Source of the DNA: Candidatus Kaiserbacteria bacterium
GTDB lineage: Bacteria > Patescibacteriota > Minisyncoccia > Phycocordibacterales > JABMNX01
DNA length: 64,000 nucleotides
Reading direction: 5' to 3'
NCBI GenBank assembly: GCA_016186705.1
Contig: JACPLB010000006.1
Coordinates: 16,325 to 80,324 of the forward strand
Below, in pieces: positions 11,069 through 19,004 of this stretch; position 1 is the first letter of the stretch, and every line of letters begins with the position of its first letter. Under the pieces are notes generated by a model. The model did not search any database. It saw only the letters and a list, made by a program, of their open reading frames with translations, and was not told the origin of the DNA. The position numbers and the translations under genes are program-made.

Positions 11069-12157
11069 ATGAGCCAGCACGTTCAGTTACCAGCACAAGG
11101 TGGTTTTTTAAGGTTCTTTCCGACTCCATCCTTTCTGAATTTTTCCGCGACTGGCGTTGATATTTCAGAGACATCAGTCAAGGTACTCAAGCTCAAAGAA
11201 ACGCGGGACGGAACCATTCCGGAGTTTTTTGAGGAGAAACGAATCGCGTTTGACATCATTTCGCAGGGAGACATTAGGGATGTTCATGCTCTCGCGGCGG
11301 TACTTACCGAGCTTAAAAAGAAATATGACATGGCGTTTATCCGCGCCTCCCTGCCTGAAGAAAAAGTATACTTGTTTCAGATGAGCATTCCGTACGCCGA
11401 AAACAAAGAGCAACTGCTCCATAGCATTGAATTCCAGCTTGAAGAGCACGTACCGATCCCTCCGGAAGATTCGGTGTTTGACTACGATATCATTCGCAAA
11501 CGTGAGGCGGATATTGAGGTGAGCGTTACCGTTTTCCCCAAGAAAGTCGTAGAAAGTTACCAGGAAGCGTTCCGTCTCGCTGGACTCACCCCTATTTCGT
11601 TTGAGCTTGAGGGTCAGGCGATTGCAAATGCGGTCATTGCCAGAGGGGATGAGAAGTCATACATGATAGTGGACTTTGGCAGGTCGCGAACCGGCATCGT
11701 CATTGTCAAAAACGGCATTGCGAGCTTCACCTCGACGGTAGATATCGGCGGCAATGCGCTCACCGAAGTTATTATGGAACATTTTCATGTCGACGAGGCG
11801 GAAGCGCAGAGAATGAAAAATAAGAAGGGGGTTATTCACAGCGAGGACAATAAAGAACTTCACGATTCTCTCTTAAAGACCATTTCTGCGTTGAGGGACG
11901 AAGTGAATCGGCACTTCCTCTACTGGAATACCAGCGATGCAAATCGGAAAGAAGAGGATAAAATAAGCAAGATTATTCTCTGCGGAGGGAATGCATCGCT
12001 CGCGGGGCTTCCCGAGTTTCTCTCGCTCGGTATTAAGGTCCCGGTTGAAAGGGCGGATGTCTGGCAGAACGCGTTTTCGTACGAAAATTACATACCGCCG
12101 CTTAATTATGAGGAAGGCCTTTCGTACGCAACTACCATTGGTCTTGCGTTAATGTAG
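11069..12157 (+). CDS. pilM: type IV pilus assembly ATPase-like protein PilM
   Basis: Actin-like ATPase-fold protein (GVDISETSVKVLKL... N-terminus, 362 aa) followed by pilN/pilO-like genes. Confidence 0.85.
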   Translation: MSQHVQLPAQGGFLRFFPTPSFLNFSATGVDISETSVKVLKLKETRDGTIPEFFEEKRIAFDIISQGDIRDVHALAAVLTELKKKYDMAFIRASLPEEKVYLFQMSIPYAENKEQLLHSIEFQLEEHVPIPPEDSVFDYDIIRKREADIEVSVTVFPKKVVESYQEAFRLAGLTPISFELEGQAIANAVIARGDEKSYMIVDFGRSRTGIVIVKNGIASFTSTVDIGGNALTEVIMEHFHVDEAEAQRMKNKKGVIHSEDNKELHDSLLKTISALRDEVNRHFLYWNTSDANRKEEDKISKIILCGGNASLAGLPEFLSLGIKVPVERADVWQNAFSYENYIPPLNYEEGLSYATTIGLALM

Positions 12158-12161
12158 CTTT

Positions 12162-12701
12162 ATGTCAAACGTATTGCCCCCACATGACAAAAAGTATTTG
12201 AAACGGGAGTACACGCTCCGTCTTTTTACGGTCTTTTTTCTGTTTCTCCTTTCTACGGGACTCTTTGCGACCATACTTCTTCTGCCGTCGTATTTCATAT
12301 CACAATCAAAAGAAGCTTCTATTGAGCGACAGTCGCAACTGCTTCAAAGGGCAATCACATTTCGGGAAAGCGACCGTTCAACCGCGTCTCTTGTAACGAC
12401 AAAGCAAAAATTGAATGAGCTTGCCGCGCTCCGCATGCAAACGCCCCACACGGATGTCATCAGTGCGGTTGTCCGAAGCACCGATTCCACAATTACCGTT
12501 GACGCCTTTTATTACACGAAGAAATCCGTTGATAATGCAGAACTTAAAATTACCGGACGCGCGCTGTCGCGCACAGCACTCCTGTCTTTTTCAGACCGGC
12601 TGAAGAGAGAACGTGTGTTTGAACGTGTTGACCTGCCTGTTTCAAGTCTCGCGCGTGACGCGAACATTGTCTTTTCAATTACGCTTGAAGGAGATTTCTA
12701 A
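12162..12701 (+). CDS. pilN: type IV pilus assembly protein PilN-like
   Basis: Short cytoplasmic N-terminus, single TM (LFTVFFLFLLSTGLFATILLL), periplasmic coiled region. Position after pilM. Confidence 0.6.
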   Translation: MSNVLPPHDKKYLKREYTLRLFTVFFLFLLSTGLFATILLLPSYFISQSKEASIERQSQLLQRAITFRESDRSTASLVTTKQKLNELAALRMQTPHTDVISAVVRSTDSTITVDAFYYTKKSVDNAELKITGRALSRTALLSFSDRLKRERVFERVDLPVSSLARDANIVFSITLEGDF

Positions 12702-12710
12702 ACGTTTTCT

Positions 12711-13241
12711 ATGGAAGCATCAAAAACAAAAATACTCGCTATGTTTGCCGCCCTCGGCGCGCTTGTCGCGCTCGGCATCTACACCCTCTTATTCTTTGAG
12801 GTGAAGAAAACGAACGAAGCGGTTTCGACACTGCAAAATCAACTTGACATTGAGGTGCGGCAGGACCAGCGCCTACGCTCAATGAAGGAGCTTCTCGCCG
12901 ACCTTGACGAAGAATTAAAAAAGATTGACACGTACTTTATCGCGTCCGATGGAGTTGTTAATTTTCTTGAAGAGCTTGAATCGTTCGGACGTATTTCAAG
13001 CGCATCCGTTGAGGTAAATTCCGTCAGTGTTGAAGATGGAGAAGGCACCGCGTCACTTCCGTACAACCGGCTTCGTATCGAGTTTGTCTCGGAAGGAAGC
13101 TGGAGTGCCCTCATGCGTCTTATCTCGCTTCTCGAGACGTTTCCTGCAGGGATTACCATGCATCGTTCCCAACTTGAACGCCTTCCGAACTCCGTGTTGT
13201 GGCAAGGGCACATCAGCTTTACCGTATTAACACTTAAATAA
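12711..13241 (+). CDS. pilO: type IV pilus assembly protein PilO-like
   Basis: N-terminal TM plus coiled-coil, then C-terminal domain. Gene order pilM-pilN-pilO. Confidence 0.55.
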   Translation: MEASKTKILAMFAALGALVALGIYTLLFFEVKKTNEAVSTLQNQLDIEVRQDQRLRSMKELLADLDEELKKIDTYFIASDGVVNFLEELESFGRISSASVEVNSVSVEDGEGTASLPYNRLRIEFVSEGSWSALMRLISLLETFPAGITMHRSQLERLPNSVLWQGHISFTVLTLK

Positions 13242-13242
13242 T

Positions 13243-13575
13243 ATGGACCGCAACGCTATCAAAGAATTTGTCTCGCATTCACTCCCGTTCTTCAGTACCG
13301 GAAAAGGCTCTGGGCGCTTAAACGCGCACTTTCATTGGAAGCTTCTGTTCGGCGGCTTCCTTACGCTCAACATACTCATTCTTCTTTTGAGTCTCTACCT
13401 TTTCCTCCAAATTAACGAGGGGGACATTTTTCTCGTCGAGCAAAATCAGGAAATTCGAATCGAAACAATTGATAGAAACATGCTTAACGAAACCATTGCG
13501 TTTTTCGAAAGTAAAAATACGCGCTTTGAGTCGAACAAACTTTTACCTTTAGAAATTCCCGATCCGTCCCGATAA
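13243..13575 (+). CDS. small membrane protein downstream of pilO (PilP-like accessory?)
   Basis: 110 aa with a single TM (LLFGGFLTLNILILLLSLYLFL). Position only; no family motif. Confidence 0.3.
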   Translation: MDRNAIKEFVSHSLPFFSTGKGSGRLNAHFHWKLLFGGFLTLNILILLLSLYLFLQINEGDIFLVEQNQEIRIETIDRNMLNETIAFFESKNTRFESNKLLPLEIPDPSR

Positions 13576-13636
13576 TTGTTTTACGTCGCATTTTCTCGTA
13601 TATTTCTCGTATAGTGATGGAGTTTTAGGTTCGCAT

Positions 13637-13711
13637 GTCCCCATAGCTCAATGGATAGAGCAACGGTCTTCTAAGCCGTCGATCCGGGTTCGACTCCTGG
13701 TGGGGACACCA
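13637..13711 (+). tRNA. tRNA-Arg (anticodon TCT), CCA encoded
   Basis: GTCCCCA acceptor stem, D-arm GCTC/GAGC, anticodon stem ACGGT/GCCGT with loop CTTCTAA (TCT), T-arm CCGGGTTCGACTCCTGG, 3' TGGGGACACCA. Confidence 0.85.
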
Positions 13712-13770
13712 AAATATTCAGAACATTTTTATTGAAATTCCGCCAATCTTCTATATACTCCAGTCTATAT

Positions 13771-13843
13771 GGGCGCTTAGCTCAGTTGGTAGAGCAATTC
13801 GTTTACACCGAAAAGGTCGGGGGTTCAAGTCCCTCAGCGCCCA
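13771..13843 (+). tRNA. tRNA-Val (anticodon TAC)
   Basis: GGGCGCT acceptor stem, D-arm AGCTCAGTTGGTAGAGC, anticodon stem with loop TTTACAC (TAC), T-arm GGGGGTTCAAGTCCCTC, 3' AGCGCCCA. CCA not encoded. Confidence 0.85.
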
Positions 13844-13850
13844 CACCAGT

Positions 13851-13883
13851 AAATGAAAACATCCTCAATGGATGTTTTCATTT
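13851..13883 (+). terminator. rho-independent terminator after tRNA-Val
   Basis: Perfect hairpin aaatgaaaacatcc-tcaatg-ggatgttttcattt with a U-tract. Confidence 0.6.
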
Positions 13884-14028
13884 GCCTGGCTTTATTGAAT
13901 CCGTTGAGGGACTTGAAAGACGAACCCCTCATATGCATGGCATGTGAGGGGGAGTCCGGGCAGGAACTTCTTATGAGTTCGCCTCCGCCAGTTGGCGGAT
14001 TGCGGACGAATTAGAAAGTTGACGCCAT
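13884..14028. repeat. ~145-nt inserted element A bounded by tRNA-Val 3'-end direct repeats; shares a core with element B (16501-16595)
   Basis: Contains gagtccgggcagga...ag(t/c)tgacgcca, which recurs downstream of tRNA-Leu. Internal hairpins ccctcata-tgcatggca-tgtgaggg and ccgcca-gtt-ggcgg. Confidence 0.4.
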
Positions 14029-14045
14029 GTCCCTCAGCGCCCACA
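14029..14045. repeat. 17-nt direct repeat of the tRNA-Val 3' end (att-like)
   Basis: gtccctcagcgcccaca at 14029-14045 is identical to 13829-13845 inside tRNA-Val, exactly 200 nt upstream. Confidence 0.6.
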
Positions 14046-14058
14046 TCAAAATCGCGCA

Positions 14059-14340
14059 ATGTCTTTAAAACACGAAATTTACTGCAAGGTGTACGGCAAA
14101 GTGCAAATGGTCATGTTCCGTGACTTTATCCGCCGCCACGCACGTCCACTTGGGCTCAAGGGGACAGTCGAGAATCTCGACGACGGGTCGGTTGAAGTCA
14201 TTGCACAAGGCACGGAGGAGAAATTAAAGACACTTATTGAAAAACTTCATAAGGGACCGTTCCTTGCCCGCGTTATCCGTGTTGATGTTACATGGAGAGA
14301 ACCACAGGAAGACTTTCAAGGTTTTACTATTGTATACTGA
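14059..14340 (+). CDS. acyP: acylphosphatase
   Basis: 93 aa. YGKVQMVMFRDFIRRHARPLGLKGTVENLDDGSVEV matches the acylphosphatase signature V.G.VQGV.FR. Confidence 0.8.
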   Translation: MSLKHEIYCKVYGKVQMVMFRDFIRRHARPLGLKGTVENLDDGSVEVIAQGTEEKLKTLIEKLHKGPFLARVIRVDVTWREPQEDFQGFTIVY

Positions 14341-14346
14341 ACGCTT

Positions 14347-15036
14347 ATGCTTGATAAAACAAAAATACCGATGTGCATCGGCGTCATCATAGACGGCAAT
14401 CGCCGGTGGGCAAAAGAAAAAGGATTGCCGTCTTTTGAAGGACATCGGCGCGGATACGGGAAAGTTAAGGAATGCGCCGGCTGGGCAAAAGAGGTGGGAG
14501 TAAAAAACCTTATCATGTATACGCTTTCGACCGAAAATTGGAATCGTTCGAAAGAAGAAGTCTCCTACCTTCTGGATTTGTTCCGGACCGTTCTCAAGGA
14601 GGAACTCGACGAACTCGTGAAAGGCAACACCCGCGTTATTTTTGCGGGGGAACTCTCTCGCTTTCCGAAAGACCTGCAAAAGATGATGCGGGAGTCGGAG
14701 GAAAAGACGAAAAGCCGCACGGAACAGACACTTGTCATTGCCGCATCGTACGGCGGGCGTGCGGAAATCGTTCATGCGGCAAACGCACTCTTGAAAAAAG
14801 GGAAGTCGTCGGTAAGCGAAAAAGATTTTTCACAGTATCTCTGGACTGCCGGCGTGCCCGACCCGGACTTGATTATCCGCACGGGCGGGGAACAGCGTCT
14901 CTCTAATTTTCTGCCGTGGCAGAGCATTTACAGTGAGCTCTTTTTCTCGCCGACCTACTGGCCTGATTTTTCAAAAGAAGAATTCTTCAAAATTCTTGAA
15001 GATTATCAAAAACGCTCTCGGAGAATGGGCGTATAA
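14347..15036 (+). CDS. uppS: undecaprenyl-diphosphate synthase (isoprenyl transferase)
   Basis: HIGVIIDGNRRWAKEKG..., FSTENW.R...EV and RTGGEQRLSNFLPWQ motifs characteristic of cis-prenyltransferases. Confidence 0.9.
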   Translation: MLDKTKIPMCIGVIIDGNRRWAKEKGLPSFEGHRRGYGKVKECAGWAKEVGVKNLIMYTLSTENWNRSKEEVSYLLDLFRTVLKEELDELVKGNTRVIFAGELSRFPKDLQKMMRESEEKTKSRTEQTLVIAASYGGRAEIVHAANALLKKGKSSVSEKDFSQYLWTAGVPDPDLIIRTGGEQRLSNFLPWQSIYSELFFSPTYWPDFSKEEFFKILEDYQKRSRRMGV

Positions 15037-15040
15037 TGCA

Positions 15041-15772
15041 ATGAATATCCCAATTATCTACGAGGATGATTCGGTACTCGTGATTGATAAACCGGCGGGA
15101 CTTGTTGTCCACCCCGCCTTTGGCGGGGTGGGTCCCGACGGAAAGACGAAAGAAGAAACTCTCACGGATTGGATACGTACACGATATCCGGACATGCGCG
15201 CTGTGGGCGAGCCGCTCCAGCTCTCCTCGGGCGAGGCAATTGCGCGTCCCGGCATTGTGCATCGTATTGACCGTGAGACATCAGGAGTTTTGATTATCGC
15301 GAAAACTCAAGAGAGTTTTGCTTTTCTCAAGAAACAGTTTCAGAACCGCGAAGTTTTTAAAGAGTACAGGGCGTTCGTCTACGGGGTGATGAAAGACGAT
15401 TCAGGGATAGTAAACCGCCCAATCGGACGGAGCAGTAAAGATTTCCGTCTCCGCTCCGCCCAGCGCGGCGCACGCGGCACTCTGCGTGATGCGGTAACGG
15501 ACTACACAGTACTAAAAAGAGGTAAGTCGGCAACATACGTTGCCGTTATGCCGAAGACCGGCAGAACACACCAAATCCGCGCACACTTCAAAGCGGTGAA
15601 TCATCCGATTGTCTGCGACACGCTCTATGCGCCGAAACGAGTGTGCGAACTCGGTTTTACGCGTCTCGCGCTTCACGCCTCTCGACTTGAGCTTGAAATT
15701 CCGCACAAAGGAAAAACAACATTTGAAGCGCCGCTCCCTCCAGATTTCGAGCATGCACTGAAGCTCCTCTAA
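15041..15772 (+). CDS. RluA-family 23S rRNA pseudouridine synthase
   Basis: Track ORF trimmed to ATG at 15041 just after the uppS stop. [12 protein letters not shown]..., [15 protein letters not shown] catalytic-Asp motif, [10 protein letters not shown]. Confidence 0.85.
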
Positions 15773-15815
15773 GCGTTTGCGGGCAGACTTTCGCTGTGCT
15801 ACAGTACAAGGCGCT

Positions 15816-16361
15816 ATGAATCAGACAGCGGAAAAAACAAGCATAAAAATTTCTCCGGTTGATATGAAGAACCGCGCAAGCGTCGGCATTCACGCCGGCG
15901 ACACGGTTCGCGTATGGCAGAAAATTGAAGAAAAAGAGAAGATACGCCTCCAAGCGTTTGAAGGCTTGGTGCTTGCGCGAAAACACGGGGAGGAGCCGGG
16001 TGCGACGTTTACCGTTCGTCGAGTCTCTGACGGCGTCGGCGTCGAGAAGATTTTTCCGCTCTACTCACCGATGATTGACCGGATTGAAATCGTCCGCCGT
16101 TCAAAAGTGCGCCGCGCGAAACTCTATCATATTCGTGAAAAAGTCGCCCGCGAAATCAAGCATCAAATGCGAAAGATGAAAATAGTTGGTCTTACAACCG
16201 AAAGCGATATTTTCCAGAAAGCCGAAGCATCCGACAAAAAAGAAAAAGCGGAGACCGCATCTCAACAGATAAACACGGTTAACGGGGAAGAGAAGACGGC
16301 AGTCAACGCGCAGGAAGAAAAGCAAGCCCCTGTTGTCGAAGCGGAAGAAAAAAAGGAGTAA
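15816..16361 (+). CDS. rplS: 50S ribosomal protein L19 with Lys/Glu-rich C-terminal extension
   Basis: [31 protein letters not shown]...[21 protein letters not shown]...[10 protein letters not shown] is the L19 consensus. Start set at the internal ATG at 15816. Confidence 0.85.
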
Positions 16362-16379
16362 TATACGGGGGTACATAAC

Positions 16380-16465
16380 GCCCAGATGGTGGAACTGGTA
16401 TACACACACGCTTGAGGGGCGTGACTCGTTAGAGTGTGCGGGTTCGAGTCCCGCTCTGGGCACCA
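16380..16465 (+). tRNA. tRNA-Leu (anticodon GAG), CCA encoded
   Basis: GCCCAGA acceptor stem, anticodon stem CACGC/GCGTG with loop TTGAGGG (GAG), long variable arm ACTCGTTAGAGTGT, T-arm GCGGGTTCGAGTCCCGC, 3' TCTGGGCACCA. Confidence 0.85.
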
Positions 16466-16471
16466 CATCTT

Positions 16472-16500
16472 AAAAAATGAGACCTGCGTCTCATTTTTTA
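16472..16500 (+). terminator. rho-independent terminator after tRNA-Leu
   Basis: aaaaaatgagacc-tgcg-tctcatttttta hairpin with flanking A/T runs. Confidence 0.6.
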
Positions 16501-16595
16501 AGATGTGGTGAGACGGAGCGATGTCGCTTTGCGACCGCGAGTCCGGGCAGGAGCCACTTAGCGAATGCAATGAGCTTAGCGAGCTGACGCCAAAT
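16501..16595. repeat. ~95-nt element B related to element A, flanked by duplicated terminator hairpins
   Basis: Core gcgagtccgggcaggagcc...gagctgacgccaaat is similar to 13951-14028. Bounded by two copies of aaaaaatgagacc(N4)tctcatttt (16472-16500 and 16596-16624). Confidence 0.4.
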
Positions 16596-16624
16596 AAAAA
16601 AATGAGACCCCGGTCTCATTTTAA
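16596..16624 (+). terminator. second copy of the terminator hairpin
   Basis: aaaaaaatgagaccccggtctcatttt. Near-identical to 16472-16500 except for the loop. Confidence 0.55.
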
Positions 16625-16644
16625 GCAAATGATATAATTGAAGG

Positions 16645-17202
16645 ATGTTATTCACCGGAAAAGGCGATACAGGGACGACGAAAGTATTCGACACTGCGTC
16701 CGGAAAACGGATTTCAAAAAATTCTCTCCTGTCGGAGGCGCTCGGGTCGCTTGACGAAGTGAATTCGTTTCTCGGTCTGTGCAAAGTTGAAAGCGGAAAA
16801 AATGCTTTCAATGTCAGCGGAAAATCTTGTGCCGATATTGTGCACGGAACCCAAGAAAATCTCTTTATTATTCAAGCGGAGCTTGCGGGCGCGGAGAAAA
16901 CCATTCCTGAAGAGAAACTTCGCGAAGCTGAAAGACTCATCAATGCAATTGAAAAAGAACTTCCGCCGATTGCAACTTTTTTTATTTCCGGTGGGGCGGA
17001 ACTTGCGGCGCGATTTGATGTCGCGCGTACGCTCGCGCGGCGAGCAGAGCGCCGCGTTGTCGGGGTCGTTGAAGCCGGAGAGCGGAGGATGGGAGAGTGG
17101 TCTCTCGCATACCTCAACCGGCTCTCGTCGCTTCTCTACGCTTTGGCTCGACTTTCAAATCGAAAATCTGATATAGTCGAGCAATCTCCGCGCTACGAAT
17201 AA
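16645..17202 (+). CDS. PduO-type ATP:cob(I)alamin adenosyltransferase family protein
   Basis: N-terminal FTGKGDTGTT...S..GKRISK...EALGSLDEVNSFLG matches the PduO/MMAB-type ATR signature. Confidence 0.75.
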   Translation: MLFTGKGDTGTTKVFDTASGKRISKNSLLSEALGSLDEVNSFLGLCKVESGKNAFNVSGKSCADIVHGTQENLFIIQAELAGAEKTIPEEKLREAERLINAIEKELPPIATFFISGGAELAARFDVARTLARRAERRVVGVVEAGERRMGEWSLAYLNRLSSLLYALARLSNRKSDIVEQSPRYE

Positions 17203-17243
17203 ATAACCCAATTCTCTGGGGCATTTATTTCGGCTTACAATAT

Positions 17244-17317
17244 GGCGACTGTGGTGTAACGGTTAACACTGGAGCTTGTGGAGCTCTCAATTCGGGTTCG
17301 ATTCCCGACAGTCGCCC
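17244..17317 (+). tRNA. tRNA-His (anticodon GTG) with G-1
   Basis: Extra 5' G before the GCGACTG acceptor stem, paired to discriminator C. Anticodon stem GGAGC/GCTCT with loop TTGTGGA (GTG). T-arm TCGGGTTCGATTCCCGA. Confidence 0.8.
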
Positions 17318-17476
17318 AAGAAAAACAACCCTTTACCAGAATGCCCTGAAAGGCATTGACAGATAATTCGCAGTATGCTAGAGTGTTCGGAATCAAATAA
17401 CTACTGAAGAAGAACTAAGTCGAGTTTACTCTTTAGGTTGTGTATTTGAGGTTTTATTCGATTTAGTTTCTAGGAA

Positions 17477-17677
17477 ATGCAAAAAGGAAAAATTGCACGT
17501 CTTATGGACAAGGGCTACGGCTTTATCCAGGTAGACGGCAGTGAAAAAGACCTTTTCTTTCACTCGAACGAACTTAAGAACGCAAGCTTTGACGACCTCA
17601 AAGAAGGCGACACACTTGAGTTTGAAGTTACCGAGGGACAGAAGGGTCCGCAGGCGGTGAATGTAAGCCGCGTGTAA
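17477..17677 (+). CDS. cspA: cold-shock protein (CspA family)
   Basis: 66 aa. GKIARLMDKGYGFIQVDG..DLFFH contains RNP1/RNP2 motifs. Confidence 0.85.
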   Translation: MQKGKIARLMDKGYGFIQVDGSEKDLFFHSNELKNASFDDLKEGDTLEFEVTEGQKGPQAVNVSRV

Positions 17678-17683
17678 CACACA

Positions 17684-17713
17684 AAAATCCCCGCTTCAGG
17701 CGGGGATTTTTGT
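17684..17713 (+). terminator. rho-independent terminator after csp
   Basis: aaaaatccccgc-ttca-ggcggggatttttg hairpin. Confidence 0.6.
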
Positions 17714-17731
17714 TATACTAAACGTACCGTT

Positions 17732-18244
17732 ATGGCAGACAAAAATTATTTTCAGGGAAACAGCGACCATCCGCGACATATTTCAGTCGGTGCAATCGTA
17801 CTCAATGACAAAAACGAAGTTTGTTGCCACCACTTTCTTGCGAAAGACCTCAAAGGGTACTGGGTAGACGAAAAACTTGACGATTTTTATCTCTTGATGC
17901 GGGAAACGATGCATCCGAACGAAACGCTTGAGCAAGCGCTCACGCGGGGACTTATGGAAGAATTTGGAATTACCGCGACAATGATTGACTATGTCGGCTC
18001 AATCCAGAGCCACTTTACGCACAAAGGAATCACGGTGGAGAAAACGACGCTCTATTTTCTTACGAAACTCGTCTCGCAAGACCTTTCACATAGAGACACT
18101 TCCGATATTGAGGGAACGACAAAGGTTGAATGGCAGACAATAGACTTTCTCATTCCTCGTATGAAACAACAGGCGAAAAAATACGGACGCACGGACGTTG
18201 ACGAATCGAGTATTCTCGAAAAAGCACAAACTTTTATAACCTGA
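17732..18244 (+). CDS. NUDIX-family hydrolase-like protein
   Basis: Partial Nudix box RETMHPNETLEQALTRGLMEEFGI (E..x7..RE..EE.G). Size 170 aa. Confidence 0.5.
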   Translation: MADKNYFQGNSDHPRHISVGAIVLNDKNEVCCHHFLAKDLKGYWVDEKLDDFYLLMRETMHPNETLEQALTRGLMEEFGITATMIDYVGSIQSHFTHKGITVEKTTLYFLTKLVSQDLSHRDTSDIEGTTKVEWQTIDFLIPRMKQQAKKYGRTDVDESSILEKAQTFIT

Positions 18245-18248
18245 CGCC

Positions 18249-19004
18249 TCACTCAAGAAGAACAAGCGCGAACATAAGCCCGAAACCGATAATAATCGCG
18301 ATAAATTGAAGCAATGACTTTTTTATTCCGGATGTTTTGTGGAGTTCCGGCACAAGATCGGAGCCGGCAATGTAGAGAAACGAGCCGGCGGCGAGTGCAA
18401 TGAGCGCGGGGGTAATATTTTGACTTGCATCTCCAATGAGGAGAGCGACTCCCGCTCCGAGCACTGCAGCGAGAGCGGAAAGGAAGTTTACCAGAAGGGC
18501 TTTTGCTCGAGTATAACCGGCGTGAATCAAGACGCCAAAATCACCGATTTCCTGCGGAATCTCATGGAGAATAATAGCAATTGTTGTCGCAATGCCTACC
18601 TCGATACTTACCATGTACGCCGCCGCGATAATAACTCCATCGAGGAAGTTATGCACTCCGTCTGAAAAAAGCACAATCGGTCCAAGCGGTGTAATGCGGT
18701 GCCCATCGTCGTGTCCGTTTATGCCGTGCGAGTGACGCCAGTGAAGAAATTTTTCGAGTACGAAGAATATGAAAATGCCAATGATAATGAAGAGCGCGGC
18801 GAAGGTTGGACTTTCAAACTCCTCAAACGCTTCCGGAATGAGGTGGATAATCGCGTCGCCAAAGAGCGCTCCAACGGCGAGACTCACAAGAAAGAAGACC
18901 GAGCGATTCAGTACATCTCTGTTAAGCGAGATGGTAAACGTTCCGACAAGCGAAATGAGACTGACCACTAAAACGCTTATCAATGTATACGCGATGATTG
19001 ACAT
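18249..19004 (-). CDS. zupT: ZIP-family zinc transporter ZupT
   Basis: 8-TM protein with a His-rich loop (HWRHSHGINGHDDGH) and HNF.DG...LHEIPQEIGDFGVL signature. Confidence 0.85.
   Translation of the reverse strand: MSIIAYTLISVLVVSLISLVGTFTISLNRDVLNRSVFFLVSLAVGALFGDAIIHLIPEAFEEFESPTFAALFIIIGIFIFFVLEKFLHWRHSHGINGHDDGHRITPLGPIVLFSDGVHNFLDGVIIAAAYMVSIEVGIATTIAIILHEIPQEIGDFGVLIHAGYTRAKALLVNFLSALAAVLGAGVALLIGDASQNITPALIALAAGSFLYIAGSDLVPELHKTSGIKKSLLQFIAIIIGFGLMFALVLLE

Follow-up and report, generated by a model that had tools for sequence, protein, structure and literature searches.

The directly repeated tRNA-Val 3′ end delimits, on both sides, a single member of a large family of elements in Patescibacteria. 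The conserved core of the family folds as a single strand, namely the tRNA-sense strand, with every helix covarying, and the family is apparently uncatalogued in view of Rfam 15 and a limited literature search, in which no description of the element was found. With a little less than even confidence, we read it as a non-autonomous selfish insertion element, the functional form of which is the folded sense strand, most likely as RNA, carrying a guide to the tRNA tail.

In the window, namely the whole 64-kb stretch of DNA analyzed, the 17-mer GTCCCTCAGCGCCCACA occurs at exactly two sites, both on the + strand (13829-13845 and 14029-14045), with no third site even at up to two mismatches. The repeat is thus exact, as originally predicted, and none is expected by chance (0 in 100 shuffles); its description as an attL/attR-like duplication of a tRNA 3′ end is also accurate. 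It forms part of a longer repeat of 23 nt with an identity of 91% (13826-13848 and 14026-14048). Copy 1 of the 17-mer spans T-loop position 59 to the discriminator plus 2 nt of tRNA-Val(TAC), which is intact (13771..13843, end at 13843/4, + strand; ARAGORN, and Rfam tRNA with 70 bits) and preceded by tRNA-Arg(TCT) (13637-13708) 60 nt ahead. The two exact copies are separated by 183 nt (13846-14028) rather than the ~145 nt first reported, a length that corresponds to the part following the hairpin (13884-14028). The ORFs overlapping the repeat region are mechanical only (53-71 aa), so that the earlier statement of an insert with no ORF holds in substance. The start codon of acyP is at 14059, 13 nt past the exact repeat. 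Four Logan contigs at this locus are 99.9-100% identical and contain no strain-level variation to read.

The T-loop-to-3′-end segment of tRNA-Val is the template for three repeat copies. The first direct copy (a, or DR1; 13826..13848, + strand) is followed by a trailer hairpin (13846..13889, + strand) with a 19-bp stem (AAAUGAAAACAUCC.../...GGAUGUUUUCAUUU) extended by CCAG/CUGG. The hairpin, predicted as the tRNA terminator, is real, with a fold z of −9.2, and is the tip of a long imperfect palindrome running from the T-loop to a′. The latter (13902..13917, + strand), overlooked in the original prediction, is an inverted copy of tRNA-Val positions 54-69 (CGTTGAGGGACTTGAA), whose complementarity to 13824-13839 is 94% and which pairs with 14026-14039. 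It provides the 5′ strand of the closing helix P1, and its final three bases, GAA, are complementary to the T-loop TTC. The conserved three-way-junction core (13915..14026, + strand; covariance model match 13902-14040, 87.9 bits, E 2.7e-27) starts with GAAA (13915-18), S1 GAC (13919-21) and the P2 hairpin (13925-51), continues with GA, S2 GUC (13954-56), CG, S3 GGC (13959-61) and AGGA, and ends with the P3 hairpin with a bulged A (13966-14019), U, GAC and S5 GCC (14024-26). The second direct copy (a, or DR2; 14026..14048, + strand) comprises the P1 3′ strand, the acceptor 3′ strand and the discriminator.

Another member of the family is located behind tRNA-Leu(GAG), which has an encoded CCA (16380..16465, + strand). 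Consistent with the original prediction of a shared core, GAGTCCGGGCAGGA is found at 13952-13965 and 16539-16552, and AGYTGACGCCA at 14017-14027 and 16582-16592. The core of this copy B (16510..16591, + strand; covariance model match 16495-16605, 65.5 bits) defines subtype B, in which GAGACGGAG replaces GAAAGACGGA and the T-loop-derived P1 is missing; no a′ is recognisable in either copy B or the subtype B copies at ftsZ. A perfect 23-bp hairpin beginning within the tRNA-Leu 3′ end (CACCA...; 16461..16510, + strand) precedes the core and represents the upstream member of a duplicated terminator-like hairpin (16472-16497). The downstream member (16597..16622, + strand; terminator-like in the − strand scan) is 88% identical to 16472-16497, and the pair forms a direct repeat bracketing copy B.

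The search for further copies, proposed along with the original prediction, yielded 93 copies in 627 kb of Patescibacteria DNA using the covariance model R1, two of which are the tRNA-Val and tRNA-Leu copies in the window. An exact-motif scan of 185,579 genomes gave 108 loci, including 58 true copies, all of them in Patescibacteria-type MAGs and several per genome; several Saccharibacteria MAGs are among the carriers of the family. The structured element is ~140 nt in size (100-155 nt across the family, or 100-190 nt when set against integrative islands), with a core of ~90 nt that follows the consensus order GAAAGACGGA-hairpin-GAGUCCGGGCAGGA-hairpin-CUGACGCC. In the typical layout, the tRNA runs up to TTC56 and continues into a (positions 57-73 plus trailer), followed by a hairpin, a′, the three-way-junction core and a again. 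Here a′ is the reverse complement of tRNA positions 54 to ~66/73, covering the T-loop and the 3′ strand of the T-stem, and in the best-preserved copies (L024, L060 and L105) it is exactly complementary to positions 54-72/73. The second a corresponds to the tRNA from T-loop C56 to the 3′ end, often extending into the trailer. A same-strand tRNA is present within 400 nt upstream in 74 of the 93 copies, representing at least 19 amino-acid identities, and further hosts are probable tmRNA genes and, in two genomes, the 3′ end of ftsZ. Of 137 tRNA genes at loci chosen for holding an element, 57 (42%) have their own tail repeated behind them, and the folded element is present at most of these 57.

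The direct repeat begins at tRNA position 55/56 in 49 copies and, in 26, extends at least 5 nt into the trailer. Starting in an internal loop and reaching the 3′ end, it leaves the tRNA intact, as is characteristic of tRNA-targeting integrase-borne elements. Like MITEs, the element is short, multi-copy and non-coding, with filled and empty sites among relatives. However, it differs from MITEs and other non-autonomous DNA transposons in that the target duplication has no fixed length (median 20 nt, range 7 to >80 nt). The inverted pair a′/a consists of local tRNA sequence that is different at every locus, with no element-specific constant terminal inverted repeats.

The fold of the core is supported by several lines of evidence. 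Without fitting the alignment to the structure, 86% of the cells are paired, compared to 70% in shuffles and 29-41% with slid partners. In the 93-copy alignment, 92% pair, with both-side changes in all five helices, including S1/S2 and S3/S5, and RNAalifold independently recovers the same helices. Of 59 copies, 55 fold better as the sense than as the antisense strand. As G-U pairs outnumber A-C pairs in the core helices by only 52 to 37, the strand call rests mainly on the folding energies and the purine-rich loops. The position of the terminator had made an antisense-strand gene attractive, in which a tRNA-like gene converges on a bidirectional terminator; this reading was rejected on account of the better sense fold in those 55 copies and the purine-rich loops on the sense strand. 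A degenerate minus-strand tRNA was also rejected, as neither ARAGORN nor Rfam gave a match.

The Rfam check suggested for the insert returned no curated family: Rfam 15 gave only tRNA matches and sub-threshold noise, both in window positions 12000-19000 (E ≤ 10) and at eight loci covering core types 1, 2 and 3 (E ≤ 1), with no Intron_gpI match in the same window region or loci. Hammerhead, twister, pistol, hatchet, HDV, SRP, k-turn and tetraloop-receptor motifs were compared by eye, and none fits. For the 147 neighboring ORFs within 2.5 kb of 90 copies, no recurrent transposase, integrase or reverse transcriptase was found among the 25 most-matched of 140 Pfam families; nor do the 64 ORFs of the window include any of these enzymes among the 25 most-matched of 77 families. 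The neighboring and window ORFs are housekeeping genes only, among the Pfam matches listed. A scan of viral contigs gave no copy, only one chance match in coding DNA of 72% GC. Mobility is therefore inferred from the distribution of copies, which weakens the selfish reading.

In the favored reading as a selfish insertion, the element would occupy T-loop position 56|57 and bring or duplicate the 3′ part of the tRNA, and we propose that the tRNA gene remains intact for this reason. The segment a′ together with GAA would serve as an internal guide, able to pair with the T-loop TTC and with either tail copy. Pairing to DR1 would generate the long hairpin, and pairing to DR2 would generate P1 and close the junction; in the P1 state, the end of the tRNA body and DR2 would lie side by side on one splint. 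Such pairing would tie the element to “its” tRNA, recombination or conversion between the direct copies would keep them identical, and the moving enzyme would be one that is not encoded beside the element. A tRNA-specific guide makes jumps to new tRNAs hard to explain, which speaks against a selfish element, as does the lack of a recognisable a′ in copy B and the ftsZ copies. In addition, a′ diverges from the tRNA at 144 of 559 sites, compared to 60 of 559 for DR2; this decay suggests that many associations are old and vertically inherited, for which a functional RNA co-evolving with its tRNA would be no worse an explanation, if not a better one.

A serious rival, which we hold possible but on the whole doubtful, is a non-coding RNA module of the cell, linked in cis to the tRNA and co-transcribed with it or read through from it. 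Both the miniature non-autonomous mobile element and the conserved small RNA considered in the original prediction survive, and both may be true. The closing helix and 3′ tail of such a module would form a continuous acceptor/T-arm mimic with an authentic 3′ strand, so that maturation by RNase P, RNase Z and CCA addition is conceivable from the sequence; alternatively, a switch between a:a′ and a′:a might control the maturation or turnover of that tRNA. The core would then be a protein- or ligand-binding three-way junction. The strong covariation and the invariant purine-rich junction bases are typical of functional RNAs, and the copies lie on the tRNA strand, within about 30-75 nt of the tRNA end. 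Moreover, DR2 is truer to the tRNA than a′ even in the unpaired acceptor strand and the discriminator, and it mirrors lineage-specific acceptor changes (CAGCGCCC in the window and CACCGCCC in L110). The association with tRNA-Val is kept across relatives whose UppS proteins are 58-66% identical. The absence of a nearby mobility gene among the Pfam families listed also fits an RNA module, as does the absence of a canonical terminator between tRNA and element in about 70% of copies. Against the favored selfish reading with its RNA form, a terminator-like hairpin with a U tract lies ahead of the element in 25 of 90 copies, the transcription of which would need read-through.

The variation among relatives is what an RNA module explains poorly. 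Where the original prediction allowed for a lone copy arranged identically in relatives, the relatives differ in presence, orientation and core type. At the tRNA-Val site, within the same gene order, the element is inverted in L109 and L110, replaced by another core in L114, present as two different cores in tandem in L117, truncated in L118 and absent from L113 and L115; the tRNA-Leu(GAG) site is likewise variable. At least two further core types share the a/a′/a layout. That the element can be present or absent, or exchanged for an unrelated core, at one tRNA among related genomes argues against a cellular function. So do the tandem arrays (L084 and L118), the 5′-truncated copies and the copies with no cognate tRNA in the examined DNA (L070, L101, L017 and L103). 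The ftsZ copies in two genomes duplicate about 35 nt of coding sequence, and the identity of the direct repeats reaches synonymous sites and the unconstrained trailer, for which tRNA mimicry has no need. In L035, L057 and L014, DR2 is decayed beside an intact core. Apart from the decayed DR2, these features are consistent with the selfish insertion element that we prefer.

The locus L016 (genome VMHB01, Parcubacteria bacterium Greene0714_7) speaks for the guide of the favored reading and brings in the possibility of splicing. Here the element sits inside tRNA-Arg(TCT), at the T-loop, with no intact upstream tail, and a complete tRNA requires that the 103 nt separating C56 from G57 be removed; when ...GGTTC is connected directly to what follows GACGCC, a perfect tRNA results. 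When all loci (about 190) were spliced virtually, L016 was the only one recovered, apart from two false positives in high-GC DNA. L016 is also the only insertion 3′ of a short motif without target duplication, whereas the other copies are flanked by long repeats. It is an unlikely proposal that the family represents a new class of guide-bearing mobile RNA, with a ribozyme or RNP core of ~90 nt folded as a three-way junction, which inserts at 56|57 and is excisable by splicing. Its guide of 12-20 nt (a′ plus GAA) may be directed at one particular tRNA or tmRNA through its T-loop and 3′ half, L016 may represent the primary, intron-like state, and the scheme may account for unrelated Patescibacteria cores sharing the a/a′/a layout.

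That the element is a T-loop intron proper, spliced from a read-through precursor either autocatalytically or through a host endonuclease together with a ligase (RtcB, for example), appears decidedly unlikely. The a′+GAA guide would align UUC56, where the 5′ exon ends, with DR2 as the 3′ exon, and DR1 would be a P1 extension displaced by DR2, analogous to the P1/P10 exchange in group I introns. In ordinary copies the 3′ exon would be a spare one, making them harmless even unspliced. Besides the tRNA-Arg(TCT) gene of L016, which is complete only without its 103 nt, this scheme accommodates the complementarity of a′+GAA to positions 54-73 in one continuous stretch and the C|RA context at both junctions, and CPR bacteria are noted for intron-rich rRNA genes. 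Against it, at least 74 of the 93 copies follow an intact tRNA, which makes splicing unneeded, and there is one interrupted gene in about 190 loci. That sole gene could be a pseudogene, an objection that also weighs on the favored selfish reading. Furthermore, the core of about 90 nt has no Rfam intron or ribozyme match and lacks the group I hallmarks of a U·G at the 5′ splice site and a terminal G, as the element ends in GCC, and terminator-like hairpins often precede it.

It is very improbable that the locus is the scar of an integrase-borne island or prophage, with attL and attR left after an internal deletion and the conserved segment as an att-proximal arm. A repeat from the T-loop through the 3′ end, together with the use of probable tmRNA genes, is the classic target pattern of tyrosine integrases. 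In L083, two copies flank 1.9 kb with three ORFs, and the copy at L101 is truncated and distant from any tRNA. However, about 50 of the 58 exact-motif copies lie within about 130 nt of their tRNA; such compactness is the family norm, leaving the originally proposed remnant of a deleted element unsupported. Nor do the Pfam families listed include a recurrent integrase nearby or the viral contigs a copy; the covariation in the conserved segment is that of a folded single strand, and GACGCC to the left of DR2 is not the mirror of the T-stem that would be expected in an integrase core site. A chance repeat or acyP promoter element, for which the TTGACG within GTTGACGCCA resembling a −35 hexamer and the nearby acyP start might speak, merits next to no credence, given a chance expectation of zero, no promoter-like site inside the window element, conserved bases that are those of covarying helices, and the same motif behind dozens of tRNAs with unrelated downstream genes, which makes the downstream gene irrelevant to the tRNA linkage.

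Patescibacteria (CPR) account for a large part of bacterial diversity, and their tiny genomes leave little space for junk. If selfish, the element would represent a compact way of colonising essential genes without killing them by means of a built-in guide, with a bearing on the origins of tRNA introns and guide-RNA-directed mobility. If a cellular RNA, it would add a hitherto unrecognised level to the tRNA biology of organisms with an already unusual translation apparatus. Should the guide-bearing mobile RNA prove true, it would represent the first T-loop intron in bacteria and, by logic rather than sequence, a minimal relative of group I/II introns or of elements guided by bridge or omega RNAs. 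Under either the selfish or the cellular reading, annotation pipelines should account for the element, as duplicated tRNA tails resemble prophage att sites and mislead island finders, and an insert as in L016 can cause a tRNA gene to be missed.

Compared to known systems, the element shares several features with integrase islands and prophages, which target the T-loop sublocation of tRNA and tmRNA genes using tyrosine integrases. In both, the repeat runs from the T-loop through the tRNA 3′ end and often past it, the tRNA is left intact, and tmRNA genes and 3′ ends of protein genes are used. However, the element measures 100-190 nt instead of kilobases, no integrase lies in cis or, among the Pfam families listed, in the neighborhood, and inverted core-type arms are lacking at the right junction, whereas a covarying folded core and an extra inverted target copy are present.

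The element also resembles tRNA-gene introns, both the bacterial group I introns and the archaeal non-canonical introns, which include T-loop positions and have spread between tRNA genes. The tRNA gene of L016 is interrupted at 56|57, both exon ends are complementary to a segment inside the element, and related inserts occur in many tRNAs. By contrast, the ordinary copies lie behind a complete tRNA, and the core, which is too small, shows neither group I features nor a match to a model; to our knowledge, no bulge-helix-bulge (BHB) endonuclease exists in bacteria. As in tRNA acceptor/T-arm mimics such as the tRNA-like domain of tmRNA and processed mascRNA-type RNAs, P1 and the 3′ tail correspond in sequence to the T-stem 3′ strand, the acceptor 3′ strand and the discriminator of a real tRNA. 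Nevertheless, the 5′ strand of the element pairs with only 7-11 nt in most copies, no equivalent of the D-arm or elbow is visible, and the mimic is different for every tRNA.

Similar to the miniature IS200/IS605 elements (PATEs) and the omega/reRNA of TnpB, the element is short, hairpin-rich and gene-free. In L016, and only there, the insertion lies directly 3′ of a short motif, the T-loop TTC, as with IS200/IS605-type elements, and the 3-nt end GCC pairs with GGC at the hairpin 5′ foot; as in a TnpB guide RNA, the structured RNA is followed directly by flanking target sequence. It differs from these systems in having no Rfam match, two dissimilar hairpins and target-derived direct and inverted repeats, with no recurrent Y1 transposase or TnpB family near the copies among the 25 most-matched Pfam families of the 147 neighboring ORFs. 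An IS608-type pairing of guide and cleavage site (GAA:TTC on the left and GGC:GCC on the right) fits the canonical copies and was not adopted because the ftsZ and subtype B junctions misfit.

Finally, the element can be compared to the attC sites of integrons. Its repeats are of 17-35+ nt and tRNA-specific, unlike the 7-nt GTTRRRY / RYYYAAC of attC; its center is the most conserved part, whereas that of attC is the least conserved, and no IntI gene or attI was seen near it among the Pfam families listed. Despite these differences, the order a...a′-core-a corresponds to that of core site...inverse core site-structured variable region-core site. Both have a stem formed by inverted copies of the recombination site, with a strand asymmetry and a bulged base in the stem, and the genes bracketed by two copies in L083 are arranged like integron cassettes.

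The 17-mer GTCCCTCAGCGCCCACA occurs exactly twice in the window, on the forward strand at 13829–13845 and 14029–14045, with none expected by chance and no third copy at up to two mismatches. The first copy is the 3' end of tRNA-Val(TAC) (13771–13843, forward strand), the two copies are separated by 183 nt, and the direct repeat reaches 23 nt with 91% identity. Between the copies are a strong hairpin (13846–13889, forward strand) and an inverted third copy (a', 13902–13917), the reverse complement of tRNA-Val positions 54–69, which had been overlooked in the original prediction and is able to pair with either the upstream (DR1) or the downstream (DR2) direct copy of the tail. The rest of the interval, together with the second repeat copy, adopts a very stable branched fold (-100.4 kcal/mol, z = -9.2). 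The core proposed to be common to the regions downstream of tRNA-Val and tRNA-Leu is also real, and the copy at tRNA-Leu is flanked by a duplicated terminator-like hairpin in place of a tRNA tail. Altogether, the duplicated tRNA-Val 3' end and the shared core stand as first observed, whereas their interpretation, as a miniature mobile element, a deletion remnant or a small RNA or promoter module, is supported only in part.

The acyP ORF (14059–14340) begins 13 nt past the second repeat copy, and neither a terminator nor a promoter-like site lies in this gap. Gene callers on identical contigs place the start later (77 aa). acyP may be transcribed through the element. In addition, perfect 23–25-bp palindromes begin within tRNA 3' ends, at CACCA of tRNA-Leu in the window (16461–16510) and at GGGCAC of tRNA-Arg in a relative (L110:2248–2300). 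Such palindromes are present even without a core downstream, and long hairpins that take in the end of a tRNA may be general among these genomes.

A scan for the motif GAGTCCGGGCAGGA-N25-55-TGACGCC against 185,579 genomes, one per species, returned 108 loci. The upstream half of the motif is present in 58 of the 108, at most four per genome and all from Patescibacteria-type MAGs, most of which are labelled Paceibacteria/Parcubacteria, Kaiser-, Campbell- or Yonathbacteria, Saccharibacteria or Peregrinibacteria, and a few of which carry other or unassigned labels, such as 'uncultured Bdellovibrionales'; the other loci were rejected as fortuitous matches in genomes of high GC content. A covariance model derived from 48 copies aligned with MAFFT matched only the two copies in the window, and 93 copies in 627 kb of Patescibacteria DNA. 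The motif was not found in viral contigs save one chance match, no Rfam family matched the element even at permissive thresholds, and a literature search found no description of it. A single repeat of this kind is not strange in itself; its significance lies in exposing an apparently undescribed feature of tRNA loci that is widespread across Patescibacteria.

The family is linked, both physically and by sequence, to tRNA genes and probable tmRNA genes, specifically to their 3' part. Same-strand tRNA ends lie within 400 nt upstream of 74 of the 93 copies, typically at a distance of 30–75 nt, and the host tRNAs span at least 19 amino-acid identities. In 49 copies, the start of the direct repeat (median length 20 nt) falls on tRNA position 55 or 56. 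In 26 copies the repeat runs at least 5 nt beyond the discriminator into the trailer, and it extends up to 80 nt where whole units are in tandem. In the closing helix, the 5' strand reads as the reverse complement of the tRNA from position 54 on, exact over a median of 11 nt and through position 72 or 73 in three loci (L024, L060 and L105). In general, a locus thus reads tRNA(...a) - trailer/hairpin - a' - core - a, in which the a':a helix reproduces the T-stem/acceptor arm without a break and with the authentic 3' strand. Of 137 tRNAs in element-holding loci, 57 have 14 nt or more of their own tail directly repeated within 450 nt, a proportion biased by ascertainment. Among the copies without such an upstream tRNA, three lie behind 3' ends resembling tmRNA genes, at L023, L087 and L003 (...CUCCACCA; ...GGGTTCAATTCCCGCCATCTCCAC...), which are putative tmRNAs by sequence. 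Copies of subtype B, a core variant without the T-loop-derived closing helix, follow ftsZ in two different genomes (L009:5560–5830 and L036:5690–5940), flanked by the duplicated last ~35 nt of ftsZ including the stop codon; these duplications are identical within each genome and differ between the genomes at synonymous sites.

Site-by-site comparison of tRNA, DR2 and a' over positions 57–69 in 43 copies showed 60 differences from the tRNA among 559 sites for DR2 and 144 among 559 for a', nearly all of the latter distal to the first 7–9 bp; the proximal part of the closing helix P1 is conserved. In a', a decayed copy of its own tRNA can be recognised, and many of the associations are therefore old. 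The identity of DR2 to the tRNA, including its unpaired part and sometimes the trailer, is maintained by conversion or selection.

The family is real, multi-copy, structured and strand-specific. The main core (type 1) is a three-way junction, in which a' is followed by GAAA-GAC-GGA and hairpin P2, then by GA-GUC-CG-GGC-AGGA and hairpin P3, which has a bulged A and a UU/UAG internal loop, and finally by U-GAC-GCC and a. In a MAFFT alignment of 48 copies fitted to no structure, 86% of cells pair in the proposed helices, compared to 70% after shuffling and 29–41% with partners slid, and RNAalifold, unaided, yields the same helices. In the 93-copy alignment, 92% of cells pair, with double changes in all five helices, including the two 3-bp helices that are invariant in the seed; the GAC/GUC helix varies to ACC/GGU, AGC/GCU and GCC/GGC, and the GGC/GCC helix to GAC/GUC and GGU/ACC. 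In 55 of 59 copies, the tRNA-sense strand is the more stably folded of the two strands, and its unpaired bases are rich in purines; the excess of G-U over A-C in the core helices is small (52 vs 37). The functional form is therefore taken to be the sense strand, most probably as RNA. A subset of copies (L093, L068, L023, L048, L114, L117, L110, L024, L053, L039 and L006) has an extra hairpin, P0, immediately 5' of a'; its loop is conserved and similar to AACUGCUU, and it has a closing ...CGCGU.

At least two more core families share the a/a'/a layout. The type 2 core, unrelated to type 1 and without an Rfam match, consists of ...ACCUGUACUGA and a hairpin (e.g. GAAUCU-GUA-AGAUUC) overlapping the T-loop, placed between an inverted and a direct tRNA tail; it is found at L006:98–270, L066:2973–3110, L080:3796–3940 and L084:5542–5870, in addition to L059, L105 and L117, where it is the first of two tandem elements. 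The type 3 core (GAACC-GUAGG/GAGGG...), with the same tRNA-tail architecture, is found at L114:5168–5400, L046:531–730 and L100:499–680.

Related genomes have gained, lost and turned over the element. The gene order tRNA-Arg / tRNA-Val / acyP / uppS ... tRNA-Leu / tRNA-His is kept in relatives whose UppS is 58–66% identical. At tRNA-Val, L109/L110 (2358–2620; UppS 66%) has a divergent type 1 copy whose DR2 matches its own genome's acceptor sequence, and the whole tRNA-Val and element unit has the opposite orientation, with respect to tRNA-Arg and acyP on either side, to that of 13771–14048 in the window. The same inversion is seen in L113, L115 and L118, the first two of which lack the element at tRNA-Val and the last of which has a truncated copy; L114 carries another variant and L117 a type 2 followed by a type 1 element. 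At tRNA-Leu(GAG), the window has subtype B, L118 a tandem pair with T-loop P1, L114 the third core type, and L110, L111 and L116 nothing. Downstream of tRNA-Leu(GAG), L110:5205–5250 holds an orphan reverse-complement tRNA 3' end (TGGACCAGGGCAGGACTCGAACCTGCC), where no tRNA is called. Tandem arrays occur in L084 and L118, one copy is 5'-truncated, and several are without a cognate tRNA in the DNA examined. At L083:5477–7607, a near-identical element pair encloses 1.9 kb with three ORFs (224, 149 and 130 aa), an arrangement that looks cassette-like.

We favour, at a little under an even chance, a non-autonomous selfish element that would sit at T-loop position 56|57, leaving the tRNA intact, with the target-complementary segment serving as its guide. 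The main rival, somewhat less probable, is that each tRNA has a cellular RNA module linked to it in cis, which would mimic the acceptor arm or act as a maturation switch. This rival is favoured by the fact that DR2 is better conserved and that many associations are old. Against it stand the turnover among relatives, the arrays, the ftsZ copies, the copies lacking a cognate tRNA nearby, and repeats that stay identical within unconstrained sequence.

At L016:2597–2775 (VMHB01000002.1, Parcubacteria bacterium Greene0714_7), where ARAGORN called no tRNA beside the element, a 103-nt copy splits tRNA-Arg(TCT) in the T-loop at 56|57. Joining ...CGAGGTTC to the sequence after GACGCC (GATTCCTCGCGGGGCTA) restores a perfect tRNA-Arg(TCT), and the upstream tail copy is only an unusable remnant. 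As virtual splicing of ~190 loci revealed no other genuine interrupted tRNA, L016 is either a pseudogene or evidence that the insert is removable from the transcript. Judged from complementarity, the geometry would allow such removal: a'+GAA is complementary in one continuous stretch to UUC(54–56) and 57–73, and could bring DR2 alongside the end of the tRNA body, with DR1 and DR2 competing for this one guide. It is doubtful that the element is categorically new, a small guide-bearing mobile RNA, and slightly more so that it is a true T-loop intron, a reading that overlaps with the former. Integrase, transposase and reverse transcriptase families do not recur among the listed Pfam matches, either within 2.5 kb of the copies or for the window ORFs. 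The scar of an integrase-borne island is very improbable and effectively excluded; a chance repeat or promoter is excluded more firmly still.

The repeat pattern works like the att sites of T-loop-targeting integrases, and the order a...a'-structure-a like that of integron attC cassettes. The small, hairpin-rich, gene-less body, whose structured right end is followed by flank sequence, recalls the miniature elements of IS200/IS605 and their guide RNAs, and L016 recalls tRNA introns. Each of these four families has at least one defining feature that the element, when tested, was found to lack, and the element is therefore assigned to none of them. The competition proposed between DR1 and DR2 resembles that of P1 extension and P10 in group I introns, but the hallmarks of these introns are all missing from the core. 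We rate the element as belonging to the general kind of elements that insert at the 3' parts of tRNA genes.
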